From an uncultured virus (IMG/VR IMGVR_UViG_3300020050_008099) (lineage: Duplodnaviria > Heunggongvirae > Uroviricota > Caudoviricetes): DNA of 20,000 nucleotides. The notes beneath the pieces were generated by a model. It was given only the letters and a program-made list of their open reading frames with translations, did not search any database and was not told the origin of the DNA. Numbering within the stretch: position 1 is the stretch's first letter; each line of letters starts with the position of its first letter. The DNA lies in IMG/VR virus record IMGVR_UViG_3300020050_008099. One strand, 5' to 3'. The position numbers were made by a program, and so were the translations under genes. Below are positions 1 to 18,936 of this stretch, piece after piece.

Positions 1-273
1 TGCTTGGTCGATGATCAGGGTGAAGTCTTCGTCGATGATGTCTTGCGGCTGGATAACTTTACCGCGCGAATAGGGACGGATTTGGATGTCCGGTTCGCGG
101 ATAATTTTAACCGAGTCACCGAAACTGGCAATTTCGCCAAAAAAATCGGTGTTAGTAACAGCTTGGACAACCGACGAACGCCGGAAAGCCAATTGAGCCT
201 TTTTAGAATAGATAACGGGCGAAAAATTGCCGTTAGGCAGGTTATTATGACCTGCAGCCGAAGGAAAAGCCAT
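1..273 (-). CDS. Major capsid protein, N-terminal part (runs off window)
   Basis: Not in ORF track. Manual translation from ATG at 273: MAFPSAAGHNNLPNGNFSPVIYSKKAQLAFRRSSVVQAVTNTDFFGEIASFGDSVKIIREPDIQIRPYSRGKVIQPQDIIDEDFTLIIDQA. AAGGA RBS upstream; follows scaffold; the 'GEI..GDSVKI..P' pattern is typical of P22-coat-like capsid N-termini. Confidence 0.88.
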   Translation of the reverse strand, partial: MAFPSAAGHNNLPNGNFSPVIYSKKAQLAFRRSSVVQAVTNTDFFGEIASFGDSVKIIREPDIQIRPYSRGKVIQPQDIIDEDFTLIIDQA

Positions 274-315
274 CTTTTTATCCTTTTGTTGATGGAATTA
301 GGATTTACGACCATC

Positions 316-399
316 AACACGCAAGGGCCATCTTTTCAAGGGTGGAGATTTCTATGCCTAGAATCTCGGCCTTTATTCATATGGGTAGTCTCTTGTGTT
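316..399 (-). promoter_or_regulatory. Structured leader upstream of capsid gene (long interrupted hairpin)
   Basis: Minus-strand nested helices CCAU/AUGG, AAGG/CCUU and GAGAUU/AAUCUC, with asymmetric internal loops CUAC x CC and CC x CAC, in the scaffold-capsid intergenic gap. Confidence 0.5.
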
Positions 400-434
400 T
401 TATTGGTAAGACTTGATCAACGTCTTGTCTTGTC

Positions 435-1217
435 TTACCGCGCCGCACCTGAGAGGTCGTAGACGAAAGAGCCATTACGAATTGCTGTTTGAATAGCCTC
501 TTCGTTTTTCTCATACTCAGCGAGCGACATTCTGCTAACTTGCGATTCCCTGTAAACGGTTTTATTACCTTCCGGGGGCACACTAGTTCCAGTCTTCTTA
601 ACTGCTAAAGCAGCTTCTTTATTGGTATCAACAGGTTTATCAAGAGTTTTCTTGTACTGTTTGATTGCCCAAATTACGTCATCAGCCTTATTCCCAAAAA
701 CCATATCTTGAATTGGTTTTGGTTGGCTGTTAGCCCAAGAGTGAAAATCCTCATCCTCGACTACTTCATCAAAGTCTGGGACGGCTTTTCTAATCTGGGT
801 CTCTTGTTTAATTTTGTGTACTTCAAGTTGAACTTTAGAAAGTTCTTTATTTGGTTCCTCAACCTCACCAAGAGCAATTGCTCTGATAATAGAGGCCGCT
901 TTGGGGTTAGCTCTTGCCCACTCCTCTGCCTCATCCGCACTAGGTAAGCTAGTTTTAGATTTTTCTGAAAGTTGCTTACGCAAAGCTTCAATCTCATCTA
1001 AGTGCGTTTGTTTTTCCTTTTCAGCAAAACGTCTCAAATCAGAATAACGTTTCTTAAAAGTCTCTTCGTCTTTATCGAGGGGTTTAGTCTCAACCTCAAC
1101 CTGAGGTTTTTGTTCGACCTCAACCCCCTCTTCCTTGATCTCGTTGGTGTTAACACCTTCGAGTTTTGCAATTTCATCTTCCAACGAAGAGATGTAGCGC
1201 GGAATAATAGCGTTCAT
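435..1217 (-). CDS. Capsid scaffolding/assembly protein
   Basis: 260 aa, acidic and coiled-coil rich (EETFKKRYSDLRR). C-terminal 'MSLAEYEKNEEAIQTAIRNG' helix of scaffold type; directly upstream of capsid; AAAGG RBS. Confidence 0.8.
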   Translation of the reverse strand: MNAIIPRYISSLEDEIAKLEGVNTNEIKEEGVEVEQKPQVEVETKPLDKDEETFKKRYSDLRRFAEKEKQTHLDEIEALRKQLSEKSKTSLPSADEAEEWARANPKAASIIRAIALGEVEEPNKELSKVQLEVHKIKQETQIRKAVPDFDEVVEDEDFHSWANSQPKPIQDMVFGNKADDVIWAIKQYKKTLDKPVDTNKEAALAVKKTGTSVPPEGNKTVYRESQVSRMSLAEYEKNEEAIQTAIRNGSFVYDLSGAAR

Positions 1218-1256
1218 AGTAACCTTTCTGGGGCCAACATTTGTTGGGTAGCCATA

Positions 1257-2081
1257 TTATTTTGAATTCTTTTTGTCTTTTTCAGACTTTGTGGGTTCTT
1301 TATCTTCTTTTTTAGGTGTAGGTTCTTTACGTTGAATAATACCTGTTTGTTGTGCTACATCTTTTACAATAGCAGCCCCAGCCCCAAGCATTCCACCTCT
1401 TTGTGGTTTGTAATCACCAGCACCCTTAAGACGATCATACGATTTTTGTAATTGTCCGACTTGATCTGGGGTAAGTTTATTACCTTGTAAGTCAGTTCCG
1501 TTTTTTAACATCTCTTCCATTTTAGTTGGAACAGTGTTATTTAAATAGTTTTGTCTAGCCCTCATGGCCAAACCCCCAAGTGGGACGGAGCCAACCAGAC
1601 CCTCAATAACTCGGTTTGGAGTTGAACCTAAGTTGTTTGCATAATCATTAAAATTTTTGTAAGACCATTTATCAACACTTCCTGCTAATCCTGTAACAGG
1701 TTCATGTGTCGATTCTCTACGACCATTTTGATTACCAATCATCCAAGGTGGAAGCTCTTCATTAGGAACCTCAATGGGTTTTGCAGCAATTTGGGGTTGC
1801 ACAAGACCCCCAGCAGCCATTTTTATAGGCTCTTCTTGAGTCGGGGCTCCAGAGACTTGCAACTCCTCCTCTTTAAAGGGTAGGTCATCACCAGTCATTT
1901 GTGCAAGGGCTTCTTTAGCTCTTGCTACAAGAGATTCAATTTTTTCTAGCCCAAGGTAACGAACGACATTAGCAGGGATGATATATTCACCTTCACTAAC
2001 TTTTGCGTCAACATCATCTCTAACTTCTTTTGGCATTGCCCCCGGAGGAACTGGATTCCCACTAATTTTATCTACTTCCAC
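1257..2081 (-). CDS. Hypothetical virion-associated protein
   Basis: 274 aa ORF in the head operon with N-terminal PPGAMPKEVRDDVDAKVSEGEYIIPANVVR motif; overlaps the upstream stop. Confidence 0.7.
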   Translation of the reverse strand: MEVDKISGNPVPPGAMPKEVRDDVDAKVSEGEYIIPANVVRYLGLEKIESLVARAKEALAQMTGDDLPFKEEELQVSGAPTQEEPIKMAAGGLVQPQIAAKPIEVPNEELPPWMIGNQNGRRESTHEPVTGLAGSVDKWSYKNFNDYANNLGSTPNRVIEGLVGSVPLGGLAMRARQNYLNNTVPTKMEEMLKNGTDLQGNKLTPDQVGQLQKSYDRLKGAGDYKPQRGGMLGAGAAIVKDVAQQTGIIQRKEPTPKKEDKEPTKSEKDKKNSK

Positions 2082-3691
2082 GGCTTCTTCTTTCTAGTGT
2101 TGGCCCAATTCTCATTCTCTATCAAGAGATTATTTAAGACCTTTTTGAAATCATAGTGATCAAACAAAGTCGATAAATTCTTGTCATAGTCATTTTTAGG
2201 ATGTCTGAGAGAACGTTGTTCAGGGGTTAGCTTTCTACGGTTTGCAGTGGCTCTTGCCTCTGCCTCCCCAATATCCCGTTCGTACAAATCGAACGATAAC
2301 TCTTTTAATTCTGCTTGTTTGTCACTGGGAATGGCTGGAAAATAGCTATAAGTTCCTCGTCTCATACCACCAGAATAATAATTAGTTAGGTCTGAAAACT
2401 GATCTAAAGCATCCAAAAATTCCTCTGACAAACGACTCTTATAGACTTCACGCTCTTCAGTTATTTTTTTAAAGAATCTATCCCAGTCTTCCGCTAAAAC
2501 GTCTGGGGTATCCCCCCACAAATCATCTTCCCCAGCAATTCCCCAACCTTTTGGGGATTTTTGATTTAAAACTTCTTGTCGAAGTTCTAGGTTTTTATAC
2601 TGTTGGTGGAAAAGTTTGGAGTCTAATAAGTATTCTAAAGCATCTCTAGGAAGTTGTGAAAGGGTTTTATCTAAAGCTATTTGAACACCCTCTGGATTAC
2701 TGCCAACCCCAAGGACACCACCATCGGCTGTTTGCTCTAAGTGTTGCAACTCGTGCAGGAGGGTTTTCTTTAGGTCTTCCTCAGACAAAGCCTCAACTTC
2801 TATGTCACCAGTGTTTGGATTAAACAAACCGGAGTTTACATCATCCTTAGAGAGTTTTAAATCATTCGGGCCGATTTGTGAGCTAAAATGACTTTTAGTG
2901 TTTAGGGCATCCCAAAACTCTGGGTGGTCCACCATTTGGGTTGTATTTCCCGTGACAGTTAAACCTTTGGATTGGTTTTTCCACGCTTTAAGCAGTTGTG
3001 GACTAATCTCCATCTTATCATCAGAGATTTCAAATCTCCAACCATTAGGACTATTCCACCAACCAGTCCTCATCCAAATCTCTTCGTCTGAGTAATTACC
3101 TTGGTTTACCATCTTCTCAGCTTCTGCCAAAGCAACTTTATCAGCTTTAGGAGAATTGGGTCCAAAGAACATCCTTACGACAGTGGGGTCATAGCTCTTG
3201 GCAAGGACTTTCCCAGCCTCTTGGAGACCTTTTGAGATGGCCTTACCACCGGGGAGGGCTTCTGCTACACTAAGGGCAGTATTAGCCGCTCCTGCGGCCA
3301 TTTGGCCCTTGTCCCCAGCTTCCCAACCCTCTTTAAATTGTTTACCACCCTCCTCGGCACCAAAGATAACTCCAAGAGGGGTTAAATCAGCCGCTCCAAC
3401 AGGGTTATTAGGATTTGTTCCAGCAAGGTTAGAGGAAATTCTATAAGCTTCTCCTTTTGGTAAACCTAAATCTTCACCAATTGTTTGGAGATTACTTTGA
3501 AAATTTTCTCTTCTAGTCGGGGTGTAAGCAGTTAGCGTATCTGTAGTTTGGTAATTAGGGTCTGGTTGAGACGGAGTGAACCACCCCGCCTCTTCCAGTT
3601 CCTGTTTTGTATACCCAGCCGCATAGAGGTCTTCCTCATCCGCGCCTTCGCCAATGTAGGATAGCAGGCTATTAAGACGTTTCTCGTCCAT
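2072..3691 (-). CDS. LPD23-like domain + zincin (HExxH) metallopeptidase-like protein
   Basis: IWMRTGWWNSPNGWRFEISD resembles large-polyvalent-protein domain 23. LLHELQHLEQ and YERDIGEAEARAT resemble the zincin motifs of polyvalent proteins. Confidence 0.7.
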   Translation of the reverse strand: MDEKRLNSLLSYIGEGADEEDLYAAGYTKQELEEAGWFTPSQPDPNYQTTDTLTAYTPTRRENFQSNLQTIGEDLGLPKGEAYRISSNLAGTNPNNPVGAADLTPLGVIFGAEEGGKQFKEGWEAGDKGQMAAGAANTALSVAEALPGGKAISKGLQEAGKVLAKSYDPTVVRMFFGPNSPKADKVALAEAEKMVNQGNYSDEEIWMRTGWWNSPNGWRFEISDDKMEISPQLLKAWKNQSKGLTVTGNTTQMVDHPEFWDALNTKSHFSSQIGPNDLKLSKDDVNSGLFNPNTGDIEVEALSEEDLKKTLLHELQHLEQTADGGVLGVGSNPEGVQIALDKTLSQLPRDALEYLLDSKLFHQQYKNLELRQEVLNQKSPKGWGIAGEDDLWGDTPDVLAEDWDRFFKKITEEREVYKSRLSEEFLDALDQFSDLTNYYSGGMRRGTYSYFPAIPSDKQAELKELSFDLYERDIGEAEARATANRRKLTPEQRSLRHPKNDYDKNLSTLFDHYDFKKVLNNLLIENENWANTRKKKPWK

Positions 3692-3875
3692 TTAATTCAT
3701 CCCTCAACCGTTCCATACGTTTGTAAGCAGTTAGTTGACCCTGCAGTCTGTAAATAATGTGTGGGTCAACAGCCCCTTCAAGTTGGAGACGAAGTTCAAT
3801 GATACGAGAATTGACCCATTTGTGAAAATCTTCTTTCACCAAAGGTGTGTTAAGTGCTTGTTTAAGAAATTCCAC
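3672..3875 (-). CDS. Small hypothetical protein after portal
   Basis: 67 aa helical ORF (IYRLQGQL) overlapping both neighbours in the operon. Confidence 0.7.
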   Translation of the reverse strand: MEFLKQALNTPLVKEDFHKWVNSRIIELRLQLEGAVDPHIIYRLQGQLTAYKRMERLRDELNGRETS

Positions 3876-5934
3876 TCACAGCCCCTGTATTTGCGCTAAA
3901 ACCAGATTCTCCGGGTGTTGGGACAGTTCCTGTGCCCATCATACCTCCACCAGAACCTTGTGTATCACCAACCTGCGCTCCGGGAGGAGGGGCTTGTTGT
4001 GAACCACCAGCGGGGGGCATAAAACTCTTAAGCATTTCAGCTTGAAGAGCTGCATCAGCAAGGGAGTTTGTAACCTTATCCTCGTCCAGATCAAGGGCCT
4101 TTGCAATTTCTCTGACAATAATATCAAGCTTTGCAAAAGGTGCAAGAATTGGGTTAGAAACAACCCCCAAGAATTGCATGAGACGTTGGCTTCTGACTTC
4201 ATTAGCCATTAAGCTTTCTGTGCCACGAGCAGAAACCTCAAGATCACCTTTGATTTCTGGGTCATAATCAAACTGCATATTGAATGCAAAGAAAGATTTC
4301 CCAATAGGAGCAAGCAAATAGTCGTCAAGGTTTTTAACAACTGTCCTGATGCTACCATTAGCAGCATTCATTAGCATAGAGATGCCAGAAGCTGTTCTAC
4401 CAACCCCTTGAATACCTGTTTGCCCATAAGAGTAAGAAGGAAGGCCCGTACTTTCATCTGCTAAAACACGAGCTTTGTCAAACAGAGCTAAGTTTTGTTG
4501 AGCCACATTTGGATATTCAGTCGCAAAAAGAGCTTGTCCGGGAGCACCAGCTTGCCTACGAATAACCTTGCCGGGGTACATTTTCAAGTCTTGTCCGGGG
4601 ACAAGGTTAGTCTCGTCTACTTCAAAGACAAGGTTGCCAGAAAGCGCAGCATTATCCACTGCCATACGCATAAAGCCATTCATCAGCATTTGCGTGTCTT
4701 CCATATTTTCAGCAACACCTACACCAAAGAAGCTGTAAGGGTTCATCTCATATGGGGCAGCATGATAAGGAATACGAGCTGGGTGAAAAGGGTTAATTAC
4801 ACAACGAAGAACTCGATTATTGCAAACCCAAATATTTGCGCTGACAATCTTATCGTCTTTGATTGCTTTATCTAGCTTAACACCACGTTCACGAAGGAAA
4901 CGGGCTTCTACATATCCCCAATATTCTAAAACTTCCCAACGTTCTACATCAGGATGGTTTACACCATCTTCCATGTAGCTTTCCCAATATTCACGAACGT
5001 AGTTGGCCCCCATATCAATGGCGTCTTCAACTTCTTCATCCCTAAACATAGGTCTTTTAGAAAGGTCTTTCAAATCACGTCTCGACATCTTATGTCGTTC
5101 GATAATGTATTCAGCTTGATCCATGTTAATGGCATCAGGGTCTGGATAAAAATTCCAGATAGAGACATGAGAAAGTGTGGGAACAGTTTTGAAGATTGGT
5201 TTATATTCTCCGCCATCCTCCCACTTAGGGTATTCTTTATTAAGGGCTAGAGGGCCTTTAACAATACCTGTACCAAACAGTGCACACTCAAAAGCCGAAG
5301 AACGAAGATGTTTAGAAGCCCCACACTCATCGAGTTGGTCTTTGATTTTCTTTTCCATCTTTTTGGCAGCAATATGTGCCGGATGGAAAGTCACAGCCGT
5401 AGGACTTGTTCCGGGGCCAAGAACTAATTTATCTGAGACAGGAGCTAGTTTTTCTTTTAACGGGCCTGTAAGATTATGTACTGTTGAGCCGGGCTTTAAA
5501 CTAGGTCCATCTTTAGTTCCAAAGGGACTAACAGGGGCTGAATTAGCTCCTGCTGGATTTTGCGGGTCAAAATGCACATTATCTGCGACACCCTCGGGTA
5601 ATTTAGTTTGGTCTACTGCAATGGGGAATTCCCCGCCACCAAAAAGAACCTCTACAATTTGTCCGTAAGCGGCTAAAACTTTTGTCTTGGTTACCTTTAC
5701 AAAAACCCTAGATTTCTCTGTATCTGTGAAAGCTAATGAAGGATCATACAACCCTCTATAGTTTCTATAAGACAACAGAAATCGTTGTTCATCTGCGTAT
5801 TTCTTTAATTTTGCTCTAAGAAAACGCTCCTCTACAAAAGAGGCGAGTTCGTCATAGGGTTTGGAATCATCTTCAAGAGATTCTGCATCTACATTCTCAG
5901 AGAGATATTCACTTTGAAGCTGTTCTTCGTCCAT
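3862..5934 (-). CDS. Portal protein
   Basis: 690 aa immediately after TerL. Motifs include SIWNFYPDP, PYEMNPYSFFGVGVAE, RMAVDNAALSGN and GRTASGISML (P22/podovirus-type portal). GGAAG RBS. Confidence 0.9.
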   Translation of the reverse strand: MDEEQLQSEYLSENVDAESLEDDSKPYDELASFVEERFLRAKLKKYADEQRFLLSYRNYRGLYDPSLAFTDTEKSRVFVKVTKTKVLAAYGQIVEVLFGGGEFPIAVDQTKLPEGVADNVHFDPQNPAGANSAPVSPFGTKDGPSLKPGSTVHNLTGPLKEKLAPVSDKLVLGPGTSPTAVTFHPAHIAAKKMEKKIKDQLDECGASKHLRSSAFECALFGTGIVKGPLALNKEYPKWEDGGEYKPIFKTVPTLSHVSIWNFYPDPDAINMDQAEYIIERHKMSRRDLKDLSKRPMFRDEEVEDAIDMGANYVREYWESYMEDGVNHPDVERWEVLEYWGYVEARFLRERGVKLDKAIKDDKIVSANIWVCNNRVLRCVINPFHPARIPYHAAPYEMNPYSFFGVGVAENMEDTQMLMNGFMRMAVDNAALSGNLVFEVDETNLVPGQDLKMYPGKVIRRQAGAPGQALFATEYPNVAQQNLALFDKARVLADESTGLPSYSYGQTGIQGVGRTASGISMLMNAANGSIRTVVKNLDDYLLAPIGKSFFAFNMQFDYDPEIKGDLEVSARGTESLMANEVRSQRLMQFLGVVSNPILAPFAKLDIIVREIAKALDLDEDKVTNSLADAALQAEMLKSFMPPAGGSQQAPPPGAQVGDTQGSGGGMMGTGTVPTPGESGFSANTGAVSGIS

Positions 5935-5949
5935 ATTTCTTCCTGTGTA

Positions 5950-7383
5950 TTAGTAACCCAAAACCGGGTCAAAAGGTTCGTAAGATTTTTGACTTCTAAT
6001 ATCAATATCCCAAATACTTGATCTAGGACGAGACATACAACCATAACGAATAGCGTCGTAAATGTGGTCTTCTGACTTAGTATCAACATCTTCTGGGTTG
6101 TTTTTGTCAAGTGGGATTACTGGCAACTGCGCAATTGCATGTGTACAAGTGTTAAAAAAGACAAGCCCCGGTTCCCCAGTGTAATCATCTACTTGAAGTC
6201 TTTTATGAACTTGGTTTTTACCACTAATTCTAGCACCACGGCTTCGGTCAGAAGGTCTCCAACGACATCCTCTTGCAATCATACGTTCTGCAATAGAGGG
6301 TCCAGTATCACCTCTTTGATGCCAGCAAGAGCTGTCAAGAACACCATAAGAGATTGGACCATCATCCTCTTCTAAATAAAGGATTATGTCTGCTAAGTCT
6401 TCTGCCAAAACTTTGTGTACGTACAATTCACGATAGACTATTAATTGGTCTTCTTCGTCTACAGCAAACCAAATAACTGCAGAGTGACTTCCATAACCAT
6501 AGTCACAAGCTCTGAAACGTCTCCACTGTCTAGGGATGTCAAAAGGTTCTACTACGTGAACGTTTCTGTTAAATTCAGGGAAAGCATTCCCTTCAATAAC
6601 ATCCCAATCTCCGTCAAGGAGTTTCCTACGTTCTGCCTCTCCAAGAGAGAGTAGGTTTGCCTCATAATCGCCAGAATCATACAAATAAGGGTTGTCAGAA
6701 AGTTTTGCCGGGATAAAACGTCTTTTAAAGAGGGGCTGACCCTCCTTAGAATGACCTTTTGGTCTTTTTAAAACTTCCCCTGTTTCAATGTCAGTCGCCC
6801 AAAAAGCTTTTCCCCAAGGTGCGGGGTCAACGAACATTTTTTTAACCCAGTTGTGGCCCGGACCTCCGGGGTTAGTCGTAGCCCGCATATACAGCTTTAA
6901 ATCTGTAGCGGTAGTTCTAAGACGAGAACGCATATAGTTCCACGTAAAAGGTGTCGGCCACTGGGTCAACTCATCAAAAGCAATGTACGTAAATGCTTGC
7001 CCTTGGTAACGAGAAACGTCTTGGTCTCTTTCAAGATATGACATCCACAATGTAGCACCAGAAGGGGCTGTCCATTGCATTTTTCGTTCAGACCAAGTAA
7101 TTCCCGGATAAGCTCTGGGGTAGAGTTCTTGGCTTTTCTGCACAAGTTCCCTTAATTCTTCAGTTGTTCTTCGGACAATTAGCCCTCTAAACTGCGGATG
7201 GGTCATATCTCTGAGTGCATCCGCTAAAATAGCGTAAGATTTACCACCCCCAGCGGCACCACCATACAAGACTTCTCGCTCATTTGCTGCAAGAAAGGTT
7301 GTTTGTGGGCCGGGGTTTGGTTTAAAAATCACATCTTTCTCAGCAATCTCCTCTGAGAAGACGTATTCAGGCAGAATCTCCAT
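5950..7383 (-). CDS. terL: Terminase large subunit (start uncertain: 7383 or 7509)
   Basis: Walker A YGGAAGGGKS, Walker B YIAFDE, coupling motif ATTNPGG, and RNase H-like nuclease motifs ACDYG and EDHIYDAIRY. Confidence 0.95.
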   Translation of the reverse strand: MEILPEYVFSEEIAEKDVIFKPNPGPQTTFLAANEREVLYGGAAGGGKSYAILADALRDMTHPQFRGLIVRRTTEELRELVQKSQELYPRAYPGITWSERKMQWTAPSGATLWMSYLERDQDVSRYQGQAFTYIAFDELTQWPTPFTWNYMRSRLRTTATDLKLYMRATTNPGGPGHNWVKKMFVDPAPWGKAFWATDIETGEVLKRPKGHSKEGQPLFKRRFIPAKLSDNPYLYDSGDYEANLLSLGEAERRKLLDGDWDVIEGNAFPEFNRNVHVVEPFDIPRQWRRFRACDYGYGSHSAVIWFAVDEEDQLIVYRELYVHKVLAEDLADIILYLEEDDGPISYGVLDSSCWHQRGDTGPSIAERMIARGCRWRPSDRSRGARISGKNQVHKRLQVDDYTGEPGLVFFNTCTHAIAQLPVIPLDKNNPEDVDTKSEDHIYDAIRYGCMSRPRSSIWDIDIRSQKSYEPFDPVLGY

Positions 7384-7744
7384 CGTCGGTTTGGGTGATT
7401 TTGGCTCCGATGTGGTCTTCTTCGAGCTGACGGATTTTTTCTTCGATCTTTTTGGTCCGTTCGGCCCAGTGTTTAAGAGAAGTTGCTCTTCGTTGCCTAG
7501 TTCGTTCACTTGCTAACCTTTTTCTTAAGCCTTCGTTAGAAATATACCTTCCGGTAATGTCAGTTAGCCAATTAGCTACTTCTCTTAACGAAAAACTTTT
7601 TACATGTTGTCTGGCTTTTTCTAAAGCCTCTAACTCAAAAGGGATTGGCAGGAGAATATCTGGGTCTTCTGGGTCTTCTTTGTAGCCAAAAGGGATTGTC
7701 CTAGAGATACGAGGGATTTTAAACCACTTCGTGTCTTCTGCCAT
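7367..7744 (-). CDS. DNA-binding protein upstream of TerL (PFGY + HTH-like)
   Basis: IPRISRTIPFGY...SLREVANWL...ISNEGLRKRL resembles recombinase-type winged-HTH DNA-binding segments. Confidence 0.7.
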   Translation of the reverse strand: MAEDTKWFKIPRISRTIPFGYKEDPEDPDILLPIPFELEALEKARQHVKSFSLREVANWLTDITGRYISNEGLRKRLASERTRQRRATSLKHWAERTKKIEEKIRQLEEDHIGAKITQTDDGDSA

Positions 7745-8203
7745 CTATTTACTCCAACTTAAGATTTTATCACACCAACCCAAAAGATCATCCTTATCTC
7801 TGTCAAGTTTCATGATATTAACTCTACGACAAACAAGCTGGATATTTCCCTCTTCGTAACCAAGGTCAGAGTTAATACGATCTATAGAGATATTAGTATC
7901 TATTTTACCTTGTCCACAAGTGTACGTCATTTTGACGCCAGAAATAGCACATAGTCCTTCTTGTGTGTTGTAAACAGATTTCAGATAGTCTAAAGTTAAG
8001 TGCCTACGTTCGGACTTTTTAACACACAAAGATTTTAAAAAATTTTCTACAGACCGTCCCCTATGAACAACACTGTACTTATGTTTATACACATATTTTG
8101 TTCTATAAGAAACACCACAAGTTTTACCACAAAAAATTTGAGTTTTTCTGCTTGGATTTTGTATAAACACTTTAGAGCAATATTTACACTCTTTTTCTTG
8201 CAT
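7745..8203 (-). CDS. His-Me finger (HNH-like) homing endonuclease with N-terminal Cys cluster
   Basis: CKYC..FCGKTC Zn motif plus GLCAISG...SIDRINSDLGYEEGNIQLVCRRVNIMK beta-beta-alpha nuclease pattern. Confidence 0.8.
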   Translation of the reverse strand: MQEKECKYCSKVFIQNPSRKTQIFCGKTCGVSYRTKYVYKHKYSVVHRGRSVENFLKSLCVKKSERRHLTLDYLKSVYNTQEGLCAISGVKMTYTCGQGKIDTNISIDRINSDLGYEEGNIQLVCRRVNIMKLDRDKDDLLGWCDKILSWSK

Positions 8204-8204
8204 A

Positions 8205-8455
8205 CTAGGACCGTTTAGGTTGGCGTCTGCGATTTACTGCCCTCGAAACAATTCTGAGATTAGAGGGGGAATTATCACGGGGCCGAAAATTTTTGTGGTC
8301 AATTTCTTTACCGTCGCCTTTATGAACCTTGCCAGATTTCATGGCCTCTCGTCTTGCTTTATTACGAGCAGCACGATCTTTTTTACCTTTTTCGGTTCCG
8401 TGAGTTGCTTGGTATTCTTTTCGAGCTACTGATAGTCGCGCTTACGCTCGGCCAT
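8205..8455 (-). pseudogene. Small HNH endonuclease interrupted by an 8-nt insertion/frameshift
   Basis: GGAGG RBS, then ATG frame MAERKRDYQ*. The body in another frame reads RKEYQATHGTEKGKKDRAARNKARR...GDGKEIDHKNFRPRDNSPSNLRIVSRAVNRRR*. Removing CAGTAGCT restores RDYRKEY and an 80-aa HNH protein. Confidence 0.75.
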
Positions 8456-9086
8456 CTCTTACCTCCAATCTCTCTGGGTTATTGTTAGCAACTGCTCGAC
8501 AAATTTCAATAAACTTATCAAGTGGTATATCGGACCTCCAAGAGTTTACGGCCCGACACACAAGTTGTATATTATCAGTCGTATAAGATTGGCCTGCATT
8601 AACTCTATCTACAGAAGCATTAGACCAATATTTAGTTCCGTTAGTCAATAAACAAGTTAAGGGAAGGCCACTAATAGCACACTTACCACCTTGTTTGTGT
8701 AGTAGGGCTAGTAGGTCATCTCTCTTAAGACCGTCCCTTTTCCTCCCAGACGAGTATAGTAGTCGAGAAAGATACCTAGACCAATTACCAGATATGTTTT
8801 CATACTGACTTTCCGTCGTCACAGAATCTGTAACGTATTTCCAACGGCCTTTGCAAGAGGGATTACAAAATTTTTGTTTTGTAGTTTTTGCGTTAAAAAT
8901 TCTCTGACAAACAGGGCAAGTTTTTTCCTCTTTAGGGAGGGTTAACTGAGCATCTAATCTCGCTTGACAAGCTTCTTTATAGGTTTCAAAAACACCAAGA
9001 TGTGTTTTTACACCCTTGTAAGACACAAAAGCAGCCCATTTTTTGCCTTTTGAGAAGACCCCTGCCACACGTTCTTTACTTGGCAA
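8442..9086 (-). CDS. AP2-domain + Cys-cluster + HNH-like homing endonuclease
   Basis: N-terminal GV...KKWAAFV...HLGVFETYKEACQAR (AP2-like), CPVC/FCNPSC, and GKCAISG...SVDRVNAGQSYTTDNIQLVCRAVN. TTG start with GAGG upstream. Confidence 0.8.
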   Translation of the reverse strand: MPSKERVAGVFSKGKKWAAFVSYKGVKTHLGVFETYKEACQARLDAQLTLPKEEKTCPVCQRIFNAKTTKQKFCNPSCKGRWKYVTDSVTTESQYENISGNWSRYLSRLLYSSGRKRDGLKRDDLLALLHKQGGKCAISGLPLTCLLTNGTKYWSNASVDRVNAGQSYTTDNIQLVCRAVNSWRSDIPLDKFIEICRAVANNNPERLEVRDGRA

Positions 9087-9088
9087 GG

Positions 9089-9448
9089 TTATTCCCCCTC
9101 TTTTGCGGGGAGGATGAAGATTCCATTACTTGTAATGTCAATCTTTTCTGTTTTAACTACCCCAGCTCTGTCTAACACCTCTTTAGAGGCTGCTAGAATC
9201 TCTTTATTTCCAAGAGCCATAGGTGTGTCTAAAATACCCACCATTTTTACAGCAGCTTTAGGACCATTTCTGGCAATGAAGTCTTTTGTCGCTTCAATAA
9301 TCTCGTCTTGTAAGACTTTTACAAGCTGTGTAGTTGGGTAGGTGTCTGAGTAACCAGCAAGTCTTTTTGCTTCTACCACATTTCCGGCAGCTTGGTCAAA
9401 CAGAACCTCTAAAAATAGTTTTTGCTGGTCACTCAGTTTTCTTGTCAT
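9089..9448 (-). CDS. Probable terminase small subunit
   Basis: LSDQQKLFLE...EAKRLAGYS HTH N-terminus and AASKEVLDRAG C-terminal motif typical of TerS; located in the packaging cluster. Confidence 0.7.
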   Translation of the reverse strand: MTRKLSDQQKLFLEVLFDQAAGNVVEAKRLAGYSDTYPTTQLVKVLQDEIIEATKDFIARNGPKAAVKMVGILDTPMALGNKEILAASKEVLDRAGVVKTEKIDITSNGIFILPAKEGE

Positions 9449-9984
9449 TTTTTGTACTTTAACAAACGAGCCTTAGCAGCAGCTCTTTTAGCTGCGTCTT
9501 TTTCGGCCTCAAGCTTAGGATTAGTTCCATTAAGGATAGCTCTTCCAAGAGCGGCACCGGGAACAGGGGTTTTGTTGACAGTGGCTTCATCAACCCTGTT
9601 AAGGGCTTTTGTTGCACGATCTGTAATAGCTTTAACACCTGCGTTCTTAACTGCAAGAGAGCGGCTACGCTGTGATTTGGAAGAGGGCGTAACACCTTGC
9701 TTAGGAATGGGCATTGTTGCAACATCCCCTTTTTTATAACCTTTTGCAGCGTCTTTGGCTACGGGGGTTTTTGCTTTAGGCTTGCTAGCAGATTTTGTTG
9801 CTGGTGCAGCAGTGGGTTCGGGGGCTTTTAAGATATTTTTTACTTTATCCGAACCACTCCAAATTTTTCCATTTGCGTTATAACCGCCCACAGAACCACC
9901 ACTTTTATTTTGTACGGAATCGCCTTTAACGACGTATCCAGCAGCTTCTAAAGCTGCTTTTTGAGATTTTGAGATTTTAGCCAT
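9445..9984 (-). CDS. Lys/Ala-rich basic hypothetical protein
   Basis: ORF track gives 9445-10053. The ATG at 9984 (MAKISKSQK) has a purine-rich upstream sequence and lies in the AT-rich backbone; ATGA overlap with TerS. Confidence 0.7.
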   Translation of the reverse strand: MAKISKSQKAALEAAGYVVKGDSVQNKSGGSVGGYNANGKIWSGSDKVKNILKAPEPTAAPATKSASKPKAKTPVAKDAAKGYKKGDVATMPIPKQGVTPSSKSQRSRSLAVKNAGVKAITDRATKALNRVDEATVNKTPVPGAALGRAILNGTNPKLEAEKDAAKRAAAKARLLKYKK

Positions 9985-10069
9985 TTTTTCTCTTTCAATT
10001 TCAGGCTCAATGCCCATGTTCCGAAGCGCCGACTCGACCTGTTCTCGCTGCACGATGAACCCCTGAATT

Positions 10070-10150
10070 TGGTGGAGCAGGAGGGTCGCGTGGTCCCCCT
10101 CTCACGGCTGCGTCTGCCTACCGCGCCCCCTTCCCGCTTGAGGCTGCCCC
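10070..10150 (-). ncRNA. tRNA-like cloverleaf with alanine acceptor identity (G3:U70, A73, CCA)
   Basis: RNA reads GGGGCAG CCUC-AAGCGGGAA-GGGG G CGCGGU-AGGCAGACGCA-GCCGUG A GAGGG-GGACCACGCGA-CCCUC CUGCUCC ACCA. No canonical T-loop or 7-nt anticodon loop. Confidence 0.6.
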
Positions 10151-10385
10151 GAAGGTTCGGTTCCTCTTATTGAGCCACCGAAAAGCCGTCATCGTCCCTG
10201 CTTTCGCGCTATTGCCTGCCCGTGCCGTTCGGCCCCGGACTCACGCTGGGGATGGACGCTCCCCGCTGCCTCAGTCGCGGTCCTTCCCCTTGACCCGGCA
10301 GTCGAGGAAGGGCGCGGCAGGGGCACCGGGGCTTGTGTAGAACGGCGTCACGCTGCCGGGTGCGATCTGGTCATAGTTGATGTTT
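10151..10385 (-). ncRNA. GC-rich structured RNA downstream of the tail fibre gene
   Basis: Long-range helices GCCGUUC/GAACGGC and GCCCCGG/CCGGGGC, an inner hairpin CUUCC-UCGAC/GUCAA-GGAAG, ACCCGGCA/UGCCGGGU complementarity and a GCGAAAGC tetraloop on the minus strand. Confidence 0.5.
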
Positions 10386-10392
10386 TGGGTCA

Positions 10393-13104
10393 TCAGAACC
10401 ACCTTCCGATTGCCGTGAGTGAAACAGTCCGATCAGCGGCTACCACTTCGCTGGTGATCGTTGTCGCATGCCAAAAACACCGCGTCGCGCTATCTGGATA
10501 GGCGTTAGCCCCAAACGCTGTGGAATTTCTGACCGACACAAGTACCGCAACCTCTGCTGATACAAAATTCGCCGGGTACGTCCAAAGTTGCCCGGGTGTG
10601 CGAAACCCGCCGTGAAGCGCCATTGTGCTGGCGAGGCTTTCGGTTTCCGTCTGCCAACAAATCTGGGTGCCGTCGGCGAAGCGGACGTACTCGCCTGCCC
10701 CCGTCACTCCGCGCTGCACGATGCCGCCCGTCGGCACACCGCCGCTTTGGCTCACCGGAGCGACGATGTTGCCCTGATTGTAGACCATATGCCCGTCGGT
10801 CGCCGCTGCCGGAACGCCGTCCAGCACGCGCAGTTCCGACGCATTGGCCCAGAGCCGCACGTCGCCGTATTGGCGGGGGGCCACGAATGTGCCCAAGGCG
10901 TTGTCACCGGCGGCGTCGATATCCCAGAGCGGCCCGTTGACCGCGCCGGATTGGGCCGATGTGCCCTTGAACACGCCCTTCATCATTCCCCAAAGGATGC
11001 GCGATGTAAGGCCGTTGATCGTGACCGATTGGGTATCCGCAGGAACTTCGCAGTGCTGGACAAACCAGCAGTTTGCGTAATGCTCGCCGACCGTCGTGTC
11101 GGTCAGGGTCAGGCTGTATCGCGGCCCGCCCATGACGATGACCGCCTCGTCCGGGGCGCAGGCGCAGACCTCCTGATGATACTGGTGGATCGTGTTGCTG
11201 CGGCAATCGCTAATGATCGCGGGGCCGCTCTTGGTGAGGTAAACATCGTCGCCATGAATTTTGATCTGGGACAGATAGGCGTTGGTGCCCGCGCCAAGAA
11301 ACAACCCGCCGCCGTAGTGCTGCTCGATCTGGATCGCGCTGAACTCGATATCGTTGACGGGCGGCCCAGGTTGATCGGCGTATTCTGCGGGCTGCGGGCC
11401 GCAGTGCAACGTCATCGAGGTGGTGAACACGCCGCTGGTGCTGCGGGTCGCCGCAACCGCAAGGCGCGCCGTCGATGCGTCGATTACTTCGGCGATGGTC
11501 GTGTGCAGGGTGCGGCCATCGTCCCCGGCGTTGACTAGCCAGACCATTCGGCCAACGTCGCCATCGTCCAGGACTTCCGCGTCCAGCGTGATTTCGTCCG
11601 ACGCGGCGGTGCTGGTGAAGCGGGCCTGCGCGAAGTGGATCGCGGCGCTGGAACTTGACGCAAACGGCGCGGTTTCAAAGGTTCCCGTCGTGGCACTGGT
11701 GACGGTCGCAATCCTGTTCGCCATCCCCCTGCTGTCCGAAGAACTTTCGGGATAGGTCGGCACGGCCTTGGTCAGGATGATGGCCGCGCCCACGTCATCC
11801 GCCGAGACCGTGCCGCTCGAAAGGGTGAAGTTCAGGCTGCTGGCGGTGATCGACGCAACCAGTTCATCGTCCCGGCGCAGGTACTGTGTGCCGCCCGACC
11901 CCAGCCGCATGTTATAACCGTCGCTGTTGAACGAACGCGTCAGGTAAAGCGCCGAGCCGCCGTAGTATGTGATGTTGAAATTTGCCAGCGTCCAGCCCAG
12001 GTTGTTGACCCCGAGGATGCCATTCGATGTGTCTTTTGTCAGCGTGGAGTAGTAGCCCCTGGCTGTCCAGTTGCGCAGGATTACATCTTCGCTATCTTCG
12101 GTGGACCCCATCCAGTTAAATTTCATCCACCACTGATCGCAACCCATCCGTTCCCACCGGATTTCGCAGCCCTTATCGCTGTCGCCGTAGATGGTGATGC
12201 CACTGGCCGCAACAGTTTCGCCTTGAGTGAAATCCAATTCAGCGGAGCAGCGATAAATCTTGTCAACGTATCCAACTTTCGCCACGCGGGCGACGTAATC
12301 CGCCCACTCCAACAGCGCCGGTGTGTCCAGCGCAACGTTGTTGCCGGGCGCGCCGAAATCTCCCGGCGTCACTACCCCGGCTGGCCTCCATTTCCGCCCG
12401 TTATTCGCCGTGATAGGCCCGTCCGCATCTGCCACCCAAACGCGCCCCTCAACTACAGCCGTGTTGACCGGTTCAGGCAGGTTGGCCGCAATAAAGCTTG
12501 CCCGTGTGTCAAAATCCGCCCGGTTGCCTTCATCAAACGGGATAGGCCGGGGCACCAGATAGGAGACACGATCACCGACGCGCAGCGCCTCGTTGAACGT
12601 CACCTCATCGCCCGCGACGGTGTAACCAACACCGTAGGTCTCAAACACCCCGTTGCGCGTCAGGATAAGCTTGTGATTGCCCGGATCAAAGGCCAGCGGG
12701 AACACCGCGCCCGCCGTCTCGACTACGAAGCTGTGAACCTCGTTCAAGGCCATGCTGGCAAGGACGTCGGCGGCAGCGGCAGCTGCCAGCGCATCGTCAG
12801 CGGCGTCTCCGGCATAGCCCTGCGCTTCATCGCGGGCGGTTTCAGCCAGCAAGCGATCAGCCTCTGCGGCGGCGGCATCCAGCCCGGTTTGCACACGGTC
12901 CGCTGCGGTTGCCGTGCGGTCAAGGCCGGTCTGAACCCGGTCAGCGGCGGTGGCGGAAACATCAAGGCCGGTCTGCACCCGATCTGCGCCAGTGGCCGTC
13001 GCATCCGCGCCCGCCTTGGCCGCGTTAGCCTCTACATCCGAAAGGATGTTATTAATTTTTGACCTGACAGAAGCTCCGGTCTCACCATTCTCAATTTGTG
13101 TCAT
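10393..13104 (-). CDS. Tail fibre/tailspike receptor-binding protein
   Basis: 903 aa. N-terminal 14-aa coiled-coil repeats, VTPGDFGAPGN..DTPAL entry to a pectate-lyase-like beta-helix, and C-terminal GEYVRFADGTQICW...LTAIGRWF fibre-tip domain. Confidence 0.85.
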   Translation of the reverse strand: MTQIENGETGASVRSKINNILSDVEANAAKAGADATATGADRVQTGLDVSATAADRVQTGLDRTATAADRVQTGLDAAAAEADRLLAETARDEAQGYAGDAADDALAAAAAADVLASMALNEVHSFVVETAGAVFPLAFDPGNHKLILTRNGVFETYGVGYTVAGDEVTFNEALRVGDRVSYLVPRPIPFDEGNRADFDTRASFIAANLPEPVNTAVVEGRVWVADADGPITANNGRKWRPAGVVTPGDFGAPGNNVALDTPALLEWADYVARVAKVGYVDKIYRCSAELDFTQGETVAASGITIYGDSDKGCEIRWERMGCDQWWMKFNWMGSTEDSEDVILRNWTARGYYSTLTKDTSNGILGVNNLGWTLANFNITYYGGSALYLTRSFNSDGYNMRLGSGGTQYLRRDDELVASITASSLNFTLSSGTVSADDVGAAIILTKAVPTYPESSSDSRGMANRIATVTSATTGTFETAPFASSSSAAIHFAQARFTSTAASDEITLDAEVLDDGDVGRMVWLVNAGDDGRTLHTTIAEVIDASTARLAVAATRSTSGVFTTSMTLHCGPQPAEYADQPGPPVNDIEFSAIQIEQHYGGGLFLGAGTNAYLSQIKIHGDDVYLTKSGPAIISDCRSNTIHQYHQEVCACAPDEAVIVMGGPRYSLTLTDTTVGEHYANCWFVQHCEVPADTQSVTINGLTSRILWGMMKGVFKGTSAQSGAVNGPLWDIDAAGDNALGTFVAPRQYGDVRLWANASELRVLDGVPAAATDGHMVYNQGNIVAPVSQSGGVPTGGIVQRGVTGAGEYVRFADGTQICWQTETESLASTMALHGGFRTPGQLWTYPANFVSAEVAVLVSVRNSTAFGANAYPDSATRCFWHATTITSEVVAADRTVSLTAIGRWF
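12855..12995 (-). repeat. Three and a part 42-nt (14-aa) tandem repeats AT(A/G)ADRVQTGLD
   Basis: Protein reads ATGADRVQTGLDVS-ATAADRVQTGLDRT-ATAADRVQTGLDAA-AAEADR. Confidence 0.85.
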
Positions 13105-14111: not shown

Positions 14112-14201
14112 TAATTCAACGTTAAACAATCCAGAGAAAACTAGTTTAGTGCTAAACAATCTGCCCTATCCGCCGATAGACTAGTTTAACATTAAACTAT
14201 C
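14112..14201. repeat. Three 20-bp quasi-palindromic repeats (GTTTA-N4-TAAAC core)
   Basis: taattcaacgttaaacaatc (14112), tagtttagtgctaaacaatc (14142), tagtttaacattaaactatc (14182). Confidence 0.7.
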
Positions 14202-14769
14202 TATTGCCTGATTAGGTCAATGCTATTGCCCGACCTTCATACGCCCCATTAAAACCGCTTTGAAAATGCGTCTAAGCCTTTCGGCCATCACACCCTAAAA
14301 CAAATCGACTTGACACATAGGCGAACAATTCCGGTTTTCCCTATGTGATTCGCTATGTCCAGACACAAACCCTAGTATACCTTGTTATAGCATCACATCA
14401 CAGATTCCCCTATTTGTTACATCCTTTGTAACATTCCGTTACAATGCCTCTTTACTAGGCGATATTTATTTGAAGCCCCATTGCAGATTCCCTTCGACAG
14501 AGAATCCGCCCATATCTGATTCGTCCCTTCCTTTTCGTTCCTATCACATTCCCCTTGACGAATCGCTTGCTTTATGTCACGCGCAGGCCCGTTTTTTCCG
14601 CATGATCAAAAGATAACATTCTAAACTAATCAGTTCAAAAATAGGGCTATGCGAATCGTTTCCGTTCTGTCAAACAGGCTTCACCGGACGGCAGGCTAGC
14701 CGGAAGGGACTAGGGCCATGGGCTCTATGGAAAGGGGAAAGGGCGCTGGCCATAATAGCGCGAAAGGGC

Positions 14770-14803: not shown

Positions 14804-14970
14804 TCAGCGAGAGGAAAGCTGGATTAGCTAAGACGGGCTTAGGCTTGTGGGCTAGGAAGGCTGGAAAGCTTGCAAATATATGGCAAAGCGCAAGCTTTGT
14901 TTGTTCTTTAAGAAACAATAGAACATATGTTCTATTCATGGCTATGGGATAGCTAGAAAAGGGGAATGCC

Positions 14971-17278: not shown

Positions 17279-17303
17279 GTTAAACACCCTCCCCATTTAG
17301 TTT

Positions 17304-17393
17304 GCCTGTGTAGTCATTAAGGGGCCGCCCTTCTTGCAGGGTTGGGCAGCGTAGCCTGCAACTACGTCGCACGTTCAAATCGTGGCACAGGCA
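17304..17393 (+). ncRNA. Aberrant tRNA-like RNA / pseudo-tRNA
   Basis: Acceptor GCCTGTG/CACAGGC-A, TA at positions 8-9, D-like GTC..GGC, T-arm CACG-TTCAAAT-CGTG, two central hairpins with TGC-containing loops; no encoded CCA. Confidence 0.65.
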
Positions 17394-17398
17394 ATTTT

Positions 17399-17697
17399 AA
17401 TGGGGAGACCTATCATCAATCTTCCGTGCTGTAGTGTTCAGTTACTTCTTTGAGCGAAATAACACTGGACACGAATTGTTGCCGGAACATTCTAGAATGT
17501 CTTTCCCCTAGGGGTGGGCATATTCAGAGTTTATTGGGGTGTCTCTGTGTAGAAATAAAACCCCTCCAAACTAGTTGGATAACTTATAAATAGGTGCCTT
17601 GGTGAACCACTGGCGTTCCATGTGGGTGTAAGGATCACCCGAACAAAACTCCTCAGGGCTTGGATGAGTCCAACTACCCTTGGCTAACTCCCCCATA
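17399..17697 (+). ncRNA. Multibranched structured domain (~300 nt)
   Basis: Closing helix ATGGGGAG/CTCCCCCAT, ACCTAT/ATAGGT, and hairpins TAGTGTT/AACACTG, TCCAA/TTGGA, GGGTG/CACCC, TTGGA/TCCAA. Confidence 0.45.
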
Positions 17698-17964
17698 TAC
17701 TTGACTAACCTTTTAAATCCTTGTGAGGAATCCTCTGTGAGAAACATCAGAGACGGCCCGTAGCTGATTTTTTAATTTTCTTAATGGCGAGGAACGGTAA
17801 TGGGAATACTGCGATCTACTGAAGGTTGGAGCTAACCGTCATAAAAAAGCTCCTCAGTCTTAGTGCAGTCCTGTAAATAAGCACACAGATCGGCTGAGTT
17901 TTTAATTTTAGAGTCTCATAATGTAAAACTGTGTCCTGAGCATGACAAGAAAAGGCTCTCCTAT

Positions 17965-18042
17965 GGCGGTGTGAAGGGAATTGGTATACCTTTCTCTCTT
18001 AAAAAGAGAAGTCTGTCGGTTCGAGTCCGACCACCGCTACCA
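17965..18042 (+). tRNA. tRNA-Leu(UAA), short variable arm
   Basis: GGCGGTG TG AAGG-GAATTGGTATA-CCTT TCTCT-CTTAAAA-AGAGA AGTCT GTCGG-TTCGAGT-CCGAC CACCGCT ACCA. Confidence 0.92.
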
Positions 18043-18049
18043 ATTGCAT

Positions 18050-18412
18050 TTTGGCGGAAAGACAGACCTAAGCGTGCTGACCCCACGTTAAGCCATAGAT
18101 GGCGGTAGTCTTTCCCCCTGAGTGTGGTTAAGGCGAAAGAACGCAAGACCCTACTTGTCAAGGGAGATAACGGCCAAGGTAAAGCTCGCCCGTTTAGGGG
18201 ATGTACGGCGCAACCGTTGAAAGAGTGACCCGAGGTGGGGCAATGGCCCCTTAAAATTATGACAAGACTGCACTCAACCTGTCCCCTATAAAATGGGGTC
18301 TGCCGCGCTAATCTCGTCGCGGGGTATAAGTCCGTATAGAGCCTTTAATTAGGTCAGGTATACGGGGTCATGAGTCCTCTGTCCAAACGGGGACGGCTAA
18401 CGGGATGCCAAA
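18050..18412 (+). ncRNA. Large pseudoknotted RNA (~365 nt), unidentified
   Basis: Closed by TTTGGC/GCCAAA. Domains GGAAAGAC/GTCTTTCC and TGAGTGTGGTT/GACTGCACTCA, plus three hairpin loops complementary to distal segments. Confidence 0.65.
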
Positions 18413-18430
18413 TCAACAATGGAGGATGAA

Positions 18431-18559
18431 ATGAACAAAGGTTGGGCTTGGGCCATGGCTGTTAACATTGTTCATGGGTTTCATATGAGGGGCTTTGACC
18501 CTGAAGAGGAACAGTTCGAGGTTGAATGTTTCCTCGTAAGTGGGACTGTTAACACCTAA
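18431..18559 (+). CDS. 42-aa hypothetical peptide
   Basis: GGAGG RBS; MNKGWAWAMAVNIVHGFHMRGFDPEEEQFEVECFLVSGTVNT; the stop abuts the hammerhead. Confidence 0.55.
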   Translation: MNKGWAWAMAVNIVHGFHMRGFDPEEEQFEVECFLVSGTVNT

Positions 18560-18614
18560 GCACCACTGATGAGTCTTGAAGAGACGAAACCAAGAGTCTT
18601 TCTTGGTATGGTGC
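18560..18614 (+). ncRNA. Type I hammerhead ribozyme
   Basis: GCACCA CTGATGA GTCT-TGAAG-AGAC GAAA CCAAGA-GTCTT-TCTTGG TA TGGTGC. Full CUGANGA/GAAA core, three perfect stems, GUA triplet; predicted cleavage after A18608. Confidence 0.93.
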
Positions 18615-18860
18615 CGAGTCTTGAACGTGTAACATAAGATATGGGCGCATTAGGGGCGGGTGGCCACCTTAACCTAATGATTTATGACCCAAAAGGGGTG
18701 TTACATGCTATGGTTCCTTAAGCCTCCGAGGAATTTCCTCTGGGGAAGCTGGTGATTTTGCAATAAGCCAGTGAGTCAAGAACTCCCAACCCAAACACCT
18801 CGCAGATTGTAGGTATGTTTGCGATAGAGAAAAGTCCCTCAAGTTGGTGGGGGCATCTGT

Positions 18861-18936
18861 TCTGATGTAGCTCAATTGGCAGAGCAAAAGATTGTTAATC
18901 TTTAGGTTATAGGTTCGAGTCCTATCATCAGAGCCA
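18861..18936 (+). tRNA. tRNA-Asn(GUU)
   Basis: TCTGATG TA GCTC-AATTGGCA-GAGC A AAAGA-TTGTTAA-TCTTT AGGTT ATAGG-TTCGAGT-CCTAT CATCAGA GCCA. Confidence 0.95.

Follow-up and report, generated by a model that had tools for sequence, protein, structure and literature searches.

Folded RNA modules that may be released from a tRNA operon in an uncultured wastewater phage

Directly behind the tRNA-Leu(UAA) gene of an uncultured tailed phage (roughly 64 kb, from wastewater) lies a stretch of DNA that is non-coding and matches no catalogued RNA family. Its appearance is that of several RNA pieces in a row, each folding by itself, a modular reading that draws on contig boundaries and on a handful of substitutions. 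One of these pieces, domain B (module B), behaves as a separable module, with boundaries shown by contigs assembled from public sequencing runs. The interpretation tentatively preferred here, held with somewhat less than even confidence, is that separable folded modules sit within a + strand tRNA operon, from which they would be freed by maturation of the tRNA-Leu 3' end on one side and by a hammerhead ribozyme on the other. Positions are those of the window, that is, the whole stretch of 20,000 nucleotides that was analysed, and the features of the island are collected in Table 1.

Table 1. Features of the tRNA island, in window coordinates.
Feature	Position	Strand	Description	Source
tRNA-Leu(UAA)	17965..18042	+	78 nt, encoded CCA; upstream border of the element	ARAGORN; Rfam tRNA 53.4 bits
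Gene-free stretch (contains the initially annotated 18050-18412)	18043..18418	+	Terminal 6-bp pairing 18050-55/18407-12	
Terminal pairing	18050-55/18407-12		TTTGGC/GCCAAA	Read in sequence
Module A	18056..18115	+	8-bp stem and three-way junction; hairpins 18071-89 (loop CUGACCC) and 18092-18103	
Domain A stem	18056-63/18108-15		GGAAAGAC/GTCTTTCC	Read in sequence
Proposed pseudoknot A	18078-84/18364-70		TGACCCC/GGGGTCA	Read in sequence
Module B	18114..18276	+	~160 nt, closed by helix 18119-29/18266-76; also stands alone elsewhere	
11-bp helix of domain B	18119-29/18266-76		8 Watson-Crick and 3 G-U pairs	
Hairpin	18149-64		CCCT-ACTTGTCA-AGGG	Read in sequence
Proposed pseudoknot B	18154-60/18260-66		CTTGTCA/TGACAAG	Read in sequence
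Proposed pseudoknot C	18195-202/18281-88		TAGGGGAT/GTCCCCTA	Read in sequence
Hairpin	18205..18217	+	ACGG-CGCAA-CCGU, inside module B; compensatory change	
Further hairpins			GGGGC/GCCCC, CCGCG/CGCGG, CCGTATA/TATACGG	Read in sequence
3' hairpin set	18281..18412	+	18283-98, 18303-22, 18332-65, 18374-96 and the 3' strand of the terminal pairing	
Small orphan ORF (candidate)	18431..18559	+	42 aa from ATG 18431; GGAGGA 18421-26; stop 18557-59	
Type I hammerhead motif	18560..18614	+	Starts on the base after the ORF stop codon	
Hammerhead stem I	18560-65/18609-14	+	Open stem I	
Hammerhead core	18566-72; 18586-88; 18608	+	CUGAUGA; GAA; H17 = A18608	
Hammerhead stem II	18573-76/18582-85	+	GUCU/AGAC	
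Hammerhead stem III	18589-95/18601-07	+	A15.1-U16.1	
tRNA-Asn(GUU)	18861..18936	+	Downstream border of the RNA island	ARAGORN; Rfam 74.1 bits

The phage encodes its SU10-type portal (3862-5934), large terminase (5950-7509) and tail-fibre protein (10393-13104) on the minus strand, and from about position 14,900 on ORFs are found on the + strand only. All genes flanking the element, as well as both tRNAs, lie on the same + strand as the element itself, and no terminator-like site was found on that strand between 17196 and 18835. The runs that share 31-letter words with the stretch are mostly labelled as wastewater or sludge metagenomes; the virus record G001 is identical to positions 1-10332 of the window and ends there, short of the element. 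The small ORF beside the element is recorded on a contig of 64,093 nt, a size in line with the 64-65 kb of the contigs that carry the syntenic relatives. Record G001 contains a junction near 10,020, inside the ORF 9445-10053, where the G+C content passes from ~40% to ~62%, remaining high through the tail-fibre gene and returning to ~40% at 13,100; this jump reflects either mosaicism of the tail-fibre module or a join made in assembly. In the 1.3-kb gene-free gap between the divergent minus- and plus-strand gene blocks, three copies of a 20-nt unit, spaced 30-40 nt (14112-14202) and containing the small palindrome TAGTTTA-N5/6-TAAACTA, look in their sequence like operator or iteron sites. At 17289-17407 (+ strand), a cloverleaf-like fold is predicted that has a T-loop-like hairpin, GTTCAAATC, and is closed by an inverted repeat of 22 nt (86% complementary); its folding z-score is -4.9 (0 of 200 shuffles as good). 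Neither ARAGORN nor Rfam (E≤5) makes a call at these positions, and the modelled fold is a possible tRNA-like RNA heading the island. The tRNA-Leu(UAA) gene has a short variable region where bacterial tRNA-Leu usually has a long arm, and 59 nt of it share 83-90% identity with tRNA-Leu from phages of Acinetobacter and Klebsiella.

The stretch 18043-18418 has no usable ORF, with stops in five of the six reading frames. All three + frames and two of the minus frames hold several stops of all kinds each, and the sixth (minus) is open from 18346 to 17961, has a start codon only from 18161 and runs antisense through tRNA-Leu. An alternative genetic code was considered and rejected, given that recoding a stop opens no frame and that most frames contain every one of the three stop types, as was a decayed gene, since the translated ORFs of relatives give no tblastn match within 17,565-18,870. 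The differences seen among natural variants follow no period of three bases; in the high-depth copy, 13 positions are distributed 3/5/5 across the phases.

Searched against Rfam 15, positions 18043-18420 reach no family at gathering level, and none at E≤10 when placed in a 2-kb query. With 386 nt searched alone at E≤10, the only row is RAGATH-26 on the minus strand, at 14 bits against a gathering level of 86.3 (E 5.5), which was judged meaningless. GOLLD, ROOL, manA, Y RNA, RNase P, tmRNA and group I and II introns thus have no Rfam 15 match at E≤10, and ARAGORN reports no tmRNA in the window, in agreement with the initial annotation, which had been unable to assign the element to RNase P, tmRNA or an intron and had proposed the Rfam search as a check. 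Sequence comparison by blastn gave no match for the stretch among 50,697 phage records (E≤10), and thus none to T4 RNAC or RNAD, nor among 72,556 plasmids (E≤1). Exact-pattern scans of viral contigs with a module A 32-mer, a 25-mer from the tRNA-Leu 3' end, two domain B stretches, the flank of the high-depth domain B copy and a hammerhead 25-mer returned no homologue; neither did genome contigs scanned with the two domain B stretches, nor 50 records from relatives of the terminase. With a covariance model built from the one domain B sequence and run over 35 sources (444 kb), the only matches were domain B itself and one of 10 bits (E 2.3). No printed description of the element was found in a search of the full-text literature, which yielded general works only; the supplements of PMC10690425 list ~10,000 candidate viral RNAs, among which it may have a match. 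The stretch is probably transcribed into RNA; the RNA run X19 gives no cover over the element, which bears neither way.

The initial annotation had described the element as one compact RNA of ~365 nt, in which a terminal helix and three loop-to-distal pseudoknots of 7-8 bp would build a tertiary fold like those of ribozymes. All the pairings that it listed are indeed present in the sequence, and the nested helices are all recovered in the minimum-energy fold, which leaves the loop segments of pseudoknots A and B free. TGACCCC/GGGGTCA carries no change among the differences listed. Complementary words are also frequent when the stretch is compared with its own shuffles: 31 complementary 6-mers against 15.6±5 (p ~0.006) and 9 complementary 7-mers against 3.8±2.5 (1000 dinucleotide shuffles; fraction reaching 9 = 0.051), with a single 8-mer against 0.93. 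However, shuffling is too lenient a control in this case, given the abundance of G-runs and C-runs in the stretch, and among windows of 363 nt taken every 25 nt along this 20 kb, which are mostly protein-coding, 21% have at least nine complementary 7-mers and 13% at least 31 complementary 6-mers. The folding energy of the whole stretch (-127.2 kcal/mol) corresponds to a z-score of -1.44, with 11 of 100 shuffles as good, and the reverse complement, at -2.21, does no worse than the + strand.

Two of the three proposed pseudoknots, B and C, are not supported by the natural variants. TGACCCC has an equally good rival partner (GACCCCA 18079-85/TGGGGTC 18294-300), and the additional 7-mer matches GACCTAA/TTAGGTC and CCCGTTT/AAACGGG are not all compatible at once; the former of these two bears 18065 G>A with no listed change at 18355. 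In the loop of pseudoknot B, the high-depth copies have 18158 T>C, while its partner 18262 is without a listed change, and pseudoknot C has its partner strand (18281-88) beyond the segment that domain B has in common with its free-standing copies. Since the long-range pairings occur at background frequency, they are no evidence of a tertiary fold, and the single compact RNA is considered very unlikely. What is supported of that description is a non-coding element on the tRNA strand behind tRNA-Leu; the single ribozyme-like fold is not supported.

Taken separately, the pieces of the stretch differ in their folding stability. Domain A (18050-18118) has a z-score of -3.8, with 0 of 200 shuffles as good, and ranks 13th of 867 natural 69-nt windows (top 1.5%). 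Domain B by itself is no better than its shuffles (z -0.7). Within the 3' hairpin set, which is defined by the minimum-energy fold, the hairpin 18326-72 is fairly unusual (z -2.5) and the 3' part as a whole reaches -1.1.

The module boundaries come from natural variants, found as contigs of four public runs, a kind of evidence that gives sequence differences and not transcription, RNA ends or levels. The longest view is provided by X5 record 12 (1346 nt), from a variant phage, which contains 17920-18676 in one piece with 63 differences (~92% identity) and is devoid of 17652-17706, 17774-17919 and 18677-18905; thus the block formed by tRNA-Leu, the element, the small ORF and the hammerhead is kept and its surroundings are not. 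The last of these deletions joins 18676 to 18906, by which the 5' part of tRNA-Asn is gone and its 3' part left. In variant contigs from other wastewater or sludge runs, the same three segments are replaced by 14, 15 and 2 letters, respectively. The sequence GCTGA(T/G)TTTTTAATTTT occurs twice, at 17763, on the left edge of the 17774-17919 deletion, and at 17893, inside it. A further contig, X6 record 20, covers 18048-18136 with 13 differences (~85% identity) and leaves out tRNA-Leu through a weak joint (side 30).

Two other contigs match the window only from 18114 or 18126 to 18276: X5 record 14, which is 355 nt long and has a depth of 34, and X6 record 21, which is 189 nt long and has a depth of 344. 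They have 18 and 16 differences, respectively (~89-90% identity), and unlike flanks, and their depths are well above the 4-9 of the contigs specific to the phage in these runs. Their right border, 18276, is the final base of the 11-bp helix that closes domain B. A border at the helix end, together with the unlike flanks, indicates that domain B is a self-contained unit, one that exists elsewhere too. Short contigs of high depth usually mark repeats, and domain B probably occurs in several contexts.

Among the differences listed, the support for structure consists of one compensatory pair and five one-sided changes. The compensatory pair, 18205 A>G with 18217 T>C, turns an A-U into a G-C pair and is present in three contigs (two of X5 and one of X6). 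In the closing helix, the changes listed all keep pairing: 18269 T>C makes a G-C of a G-U pair, and 18272 A>G makes a U-G of a U-A pair. Pairing is also kept by 18184 G>A, 18374 G>A and 18393 A>G elsewhere, with the caveat that a G-U pair stays paired after a transition in any case. In the hairpin 18332-65, the innermost A-U pair is lost through 18359 T>C. The three G-U pairs of the closing helix would be mismatches on the opposite strand and, along with the pair-keeping changes, they favour a + strand RNA over an inverted repeat at the DNA level. A DNA-level MITE was accordingly rejected for domain B, with no target duplication seen and a helix of the wobble type.

Downstream of the element lies a type I hammerhead motif, which would fix the transcribed strand. 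Each of its core positions is of the expected kind (C3 U4 G5 A6 N7 G8 A9, G12 A13 A14, A15.1-U16.1 and an H17 that is not G), and G10.1-C11.1 and the three stems are present as well. When the window and 90 loci were scanned on both strands by a script that requires the core and three stems, this site was the single full match. Its Rfam scores are weak and short of gathering, at 22 bits against 56.3 for the RAGATH-1 hammerhead (E 1.1) and 17.5 against 52 for HH9 (E 0.6). From its sequence, the motif is predicted to cut between 18608 and 18609. The sequence GAGTCTTGAA is found twice, at 18571 and at 18615, the latter just past stem I.

Between the element and the hammerhead is an ORF of 42 aa that is possibly genuine, and with it comes another explanation, according to which the element would be the structured 5' leader of a single-gene mRNA for this peptide, stabilising the mRNA or gating its translation, with the 5' end of the message set by tRNA processing and its 3' end by the hammerhead. 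The arrangement suits such a message, as GGAGGA lies 4 nt before the ATG, stem I of the hammerhead begins on the very next base after the stop codon, two of the three listed substitutions near the ORF 3' end are synonymous (18541 and 18556, the third, 18545, being Thr>Ala), and prophage hammerheads that flank single genes are known (PMC3088659). Against this, the ORF matches only itself among 5.8 billion proteins, the variant contig has 18425 G>A within GGAGGA and 18428 G>A in the spacer to the ATG, a leader of 375 nt would be unusual for a phage gene, and module B is found elsewhere without this ORF. A leader function is thus regarded as unlikely, although it is compatible with the release of folded modules from the tRNA operon, the two readings not being mutually exclusive.

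The conservation of the element was assessed through the 210-aa ORF located 1 kb upstream of it, which has 28 relatives besides itself. An alignment of these proteins led to eight metagenome loci, and the ORF itself to one weak viral-contig locus. Six of the nine loci scanned share an arrangement in which the 210-aa gene is preceded by tRNA-Thr (minus strand) or other tRNAs and followed by tRNA-Leu(UAA). What comes straight behind tRNA-Leu varies, being small ORFs with ribosome-binding sites in L083, L086 and L088, tRNA-Arg in L087 and L089, and a tRNA remnant followed by tRNA-Ile in L090. The element was not found in the relatives' loci by blastn, by tblastn with all ORFs or with the domain B covariance model. 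Missing from relatives at 40-56% neighbour-protein identity, it is therefore not conserved, and its absence from six syntenic relatives makes it dispensable, and young or mobile. As for other features of these loci, L090 contains a lone tRNA 3' half (10698-10722; T arm, acceptor strand and CCA) and a stretch of ~100 nt with a 9-bp acceptor-like stem and an ACCA end (10826-10941), both followed by the same CACCAAGTTAGATGTG. A motif upstream of the tRNA genes, GTTACTTCTTTG..GAAA.TACAC, is shared between the window (17426-17465) and L088 (5120-5159) with 72% identity, and GGTTACTTC is found again in L088 at ~5376.

A further reading is that the element is filler devoid of function, a spacer of the tRNA island scarred by recombination, in which domain B would be a captured repeat and the hairpins would have arisen by chance or serve merely as nuclease stops. 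Its absence from all six syntenic relatives speaks for this. The many insertions and deletions of the island among variants and the unremarkable overall folding energy point the same way, as does a decayed near-complement of the domain B helix strand upstream of tRNA-Leu. There, 17855-17874 is 80% complementary over 20 nt to 18262-18281 and pairs with 18266-76 at 10 of 11 positions by Watson-Crick pairs, better than the helix's own 5' strand; judged by sequence, it is possibly a relic of another copy. However, the variant phage retains 17920-18676 entire while losing neighbouring pieces, the compensatory pair and the wobble-type changes speak for pairing, module A ranks among the most stable windows of its size, and the hammerhead motif directly downstream is intact. 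Mere filler is held to be fairly improbable.

The preferred reading, release of folded modules from the tRNA operon, can be laid out as follows. Positions 18043-18608 would form the central part, with little or no translation, of a + strand operon of tRNAs and early genes, made up of a chain of stem-closed RNA pieces (module A, module B and the 3' hairpins), each folding separately, with module B (18119-18276) also circulating alone in other genomes of the same habitats. Host enzymes of tRNA maturation would make a first cut in the polycistronic transcript, at the tRNA-Leu 3' end, and the type I hammerhead a second one, at 18608/18609, to free an RNA of ~565 nt with a 2',3'-cyclic phosphate end. 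The modules may then persist as stable passenger RNAs, or act as folding insulators between tRNAs, like T4 RNAC and RNAD. A bolder version, which we regard as a long shot, would make domain B the conserved core of an uncatalogued RNA module, horizontally mobile and abundant among wastewater viromes, that is here grafted between module A and the 3' hairpins, with at least TGACCCC/GGGGTCA and the terminal helix being real, and the whole being a new class of large folded phage RNA, hammerhead-released from a tRNA operon.

Phage tRNA clusters repeatedly yield folded RNAs to which no role is assigned, such as T4 RNAC and RNAD, GOLLD and ROOL. In the present case, a piece of ~160 nt appears to travel between genomes on its own, the whole block is kept in a variant phage and a self-cleaving ribozyme motif stands at its end. 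The segment 17965-18640 is a small, concrete construct for asking whether the modules are made, excised and stable, and the element can serve as a seed for finding its family in larger metagenome collections. If it were mere filler, it would still be a reminder that 7-bp loop-to-distal matches within 360 nt are background.

Several known systems invite comparison. Like RNase P RNA, tmRNA and group I introns, the stretch has a length of ~360 nt, a terminal pairing that would join its ends, potential crossing long-range helices and a link to tRNA. An identity as RNase P, a resemblance with no Rfam match at E≤10, was rejected. In RNase P, helix P4 involves pairing with the 3'-terminal strand, whereas GGAAAGAC pairs locally, 45 nt downstream; and, unlike group I introns, the stretch is flanked by no split host gene. 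GOLLD and ROOL are described in PMC12286853 as large non-coding RNAs of phages and prophages, of unknown function, often near tRNA islands and with many pseudoknots. The stretch differs from them in being shorter, in that neither Rfam model matches it at E≤10, and in that its long-range pairings are unsupported, with no sign of a conserved ornate fold or of multimers. Regarding the hammerhead, Perreault et al. 2011 (PMC3088659) report that prophage hammerheads flank genes and propose the processing of long transcripts. Like the type I hammerheads of prophages and phages, 18560-18614 has a full CUGAUGA/GAA core and is intergenic, beside a short gene, but it scores only 17.5-22 bits against gathering levels of 52-56. 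This likeness concerns a neighbour of the flagged stretch, and not the stretch itself. Finally, phage T4 makes two stable RNAs, RNAC and RNAD (species 1 and 2), of 139 and 119 nt. They derive from the T4 tRNA region and their roles are unknown, according to Uzan and Miller 2010 (PMC3014915). The present stretch has no sequence similarity to them (blastn against cultured phage records, E≤10), and it is longer, modular and followed by a hammerhead and a small ORF. It resembles them in being a non-tRNA, non-coding sequence on the tRNA strand inside a tRNA cluster (17965-18042 to 18861-18936), and for both the T4 RNAs and this stretch, co-transcription with the tRNAs and excision alongside them are presumed.
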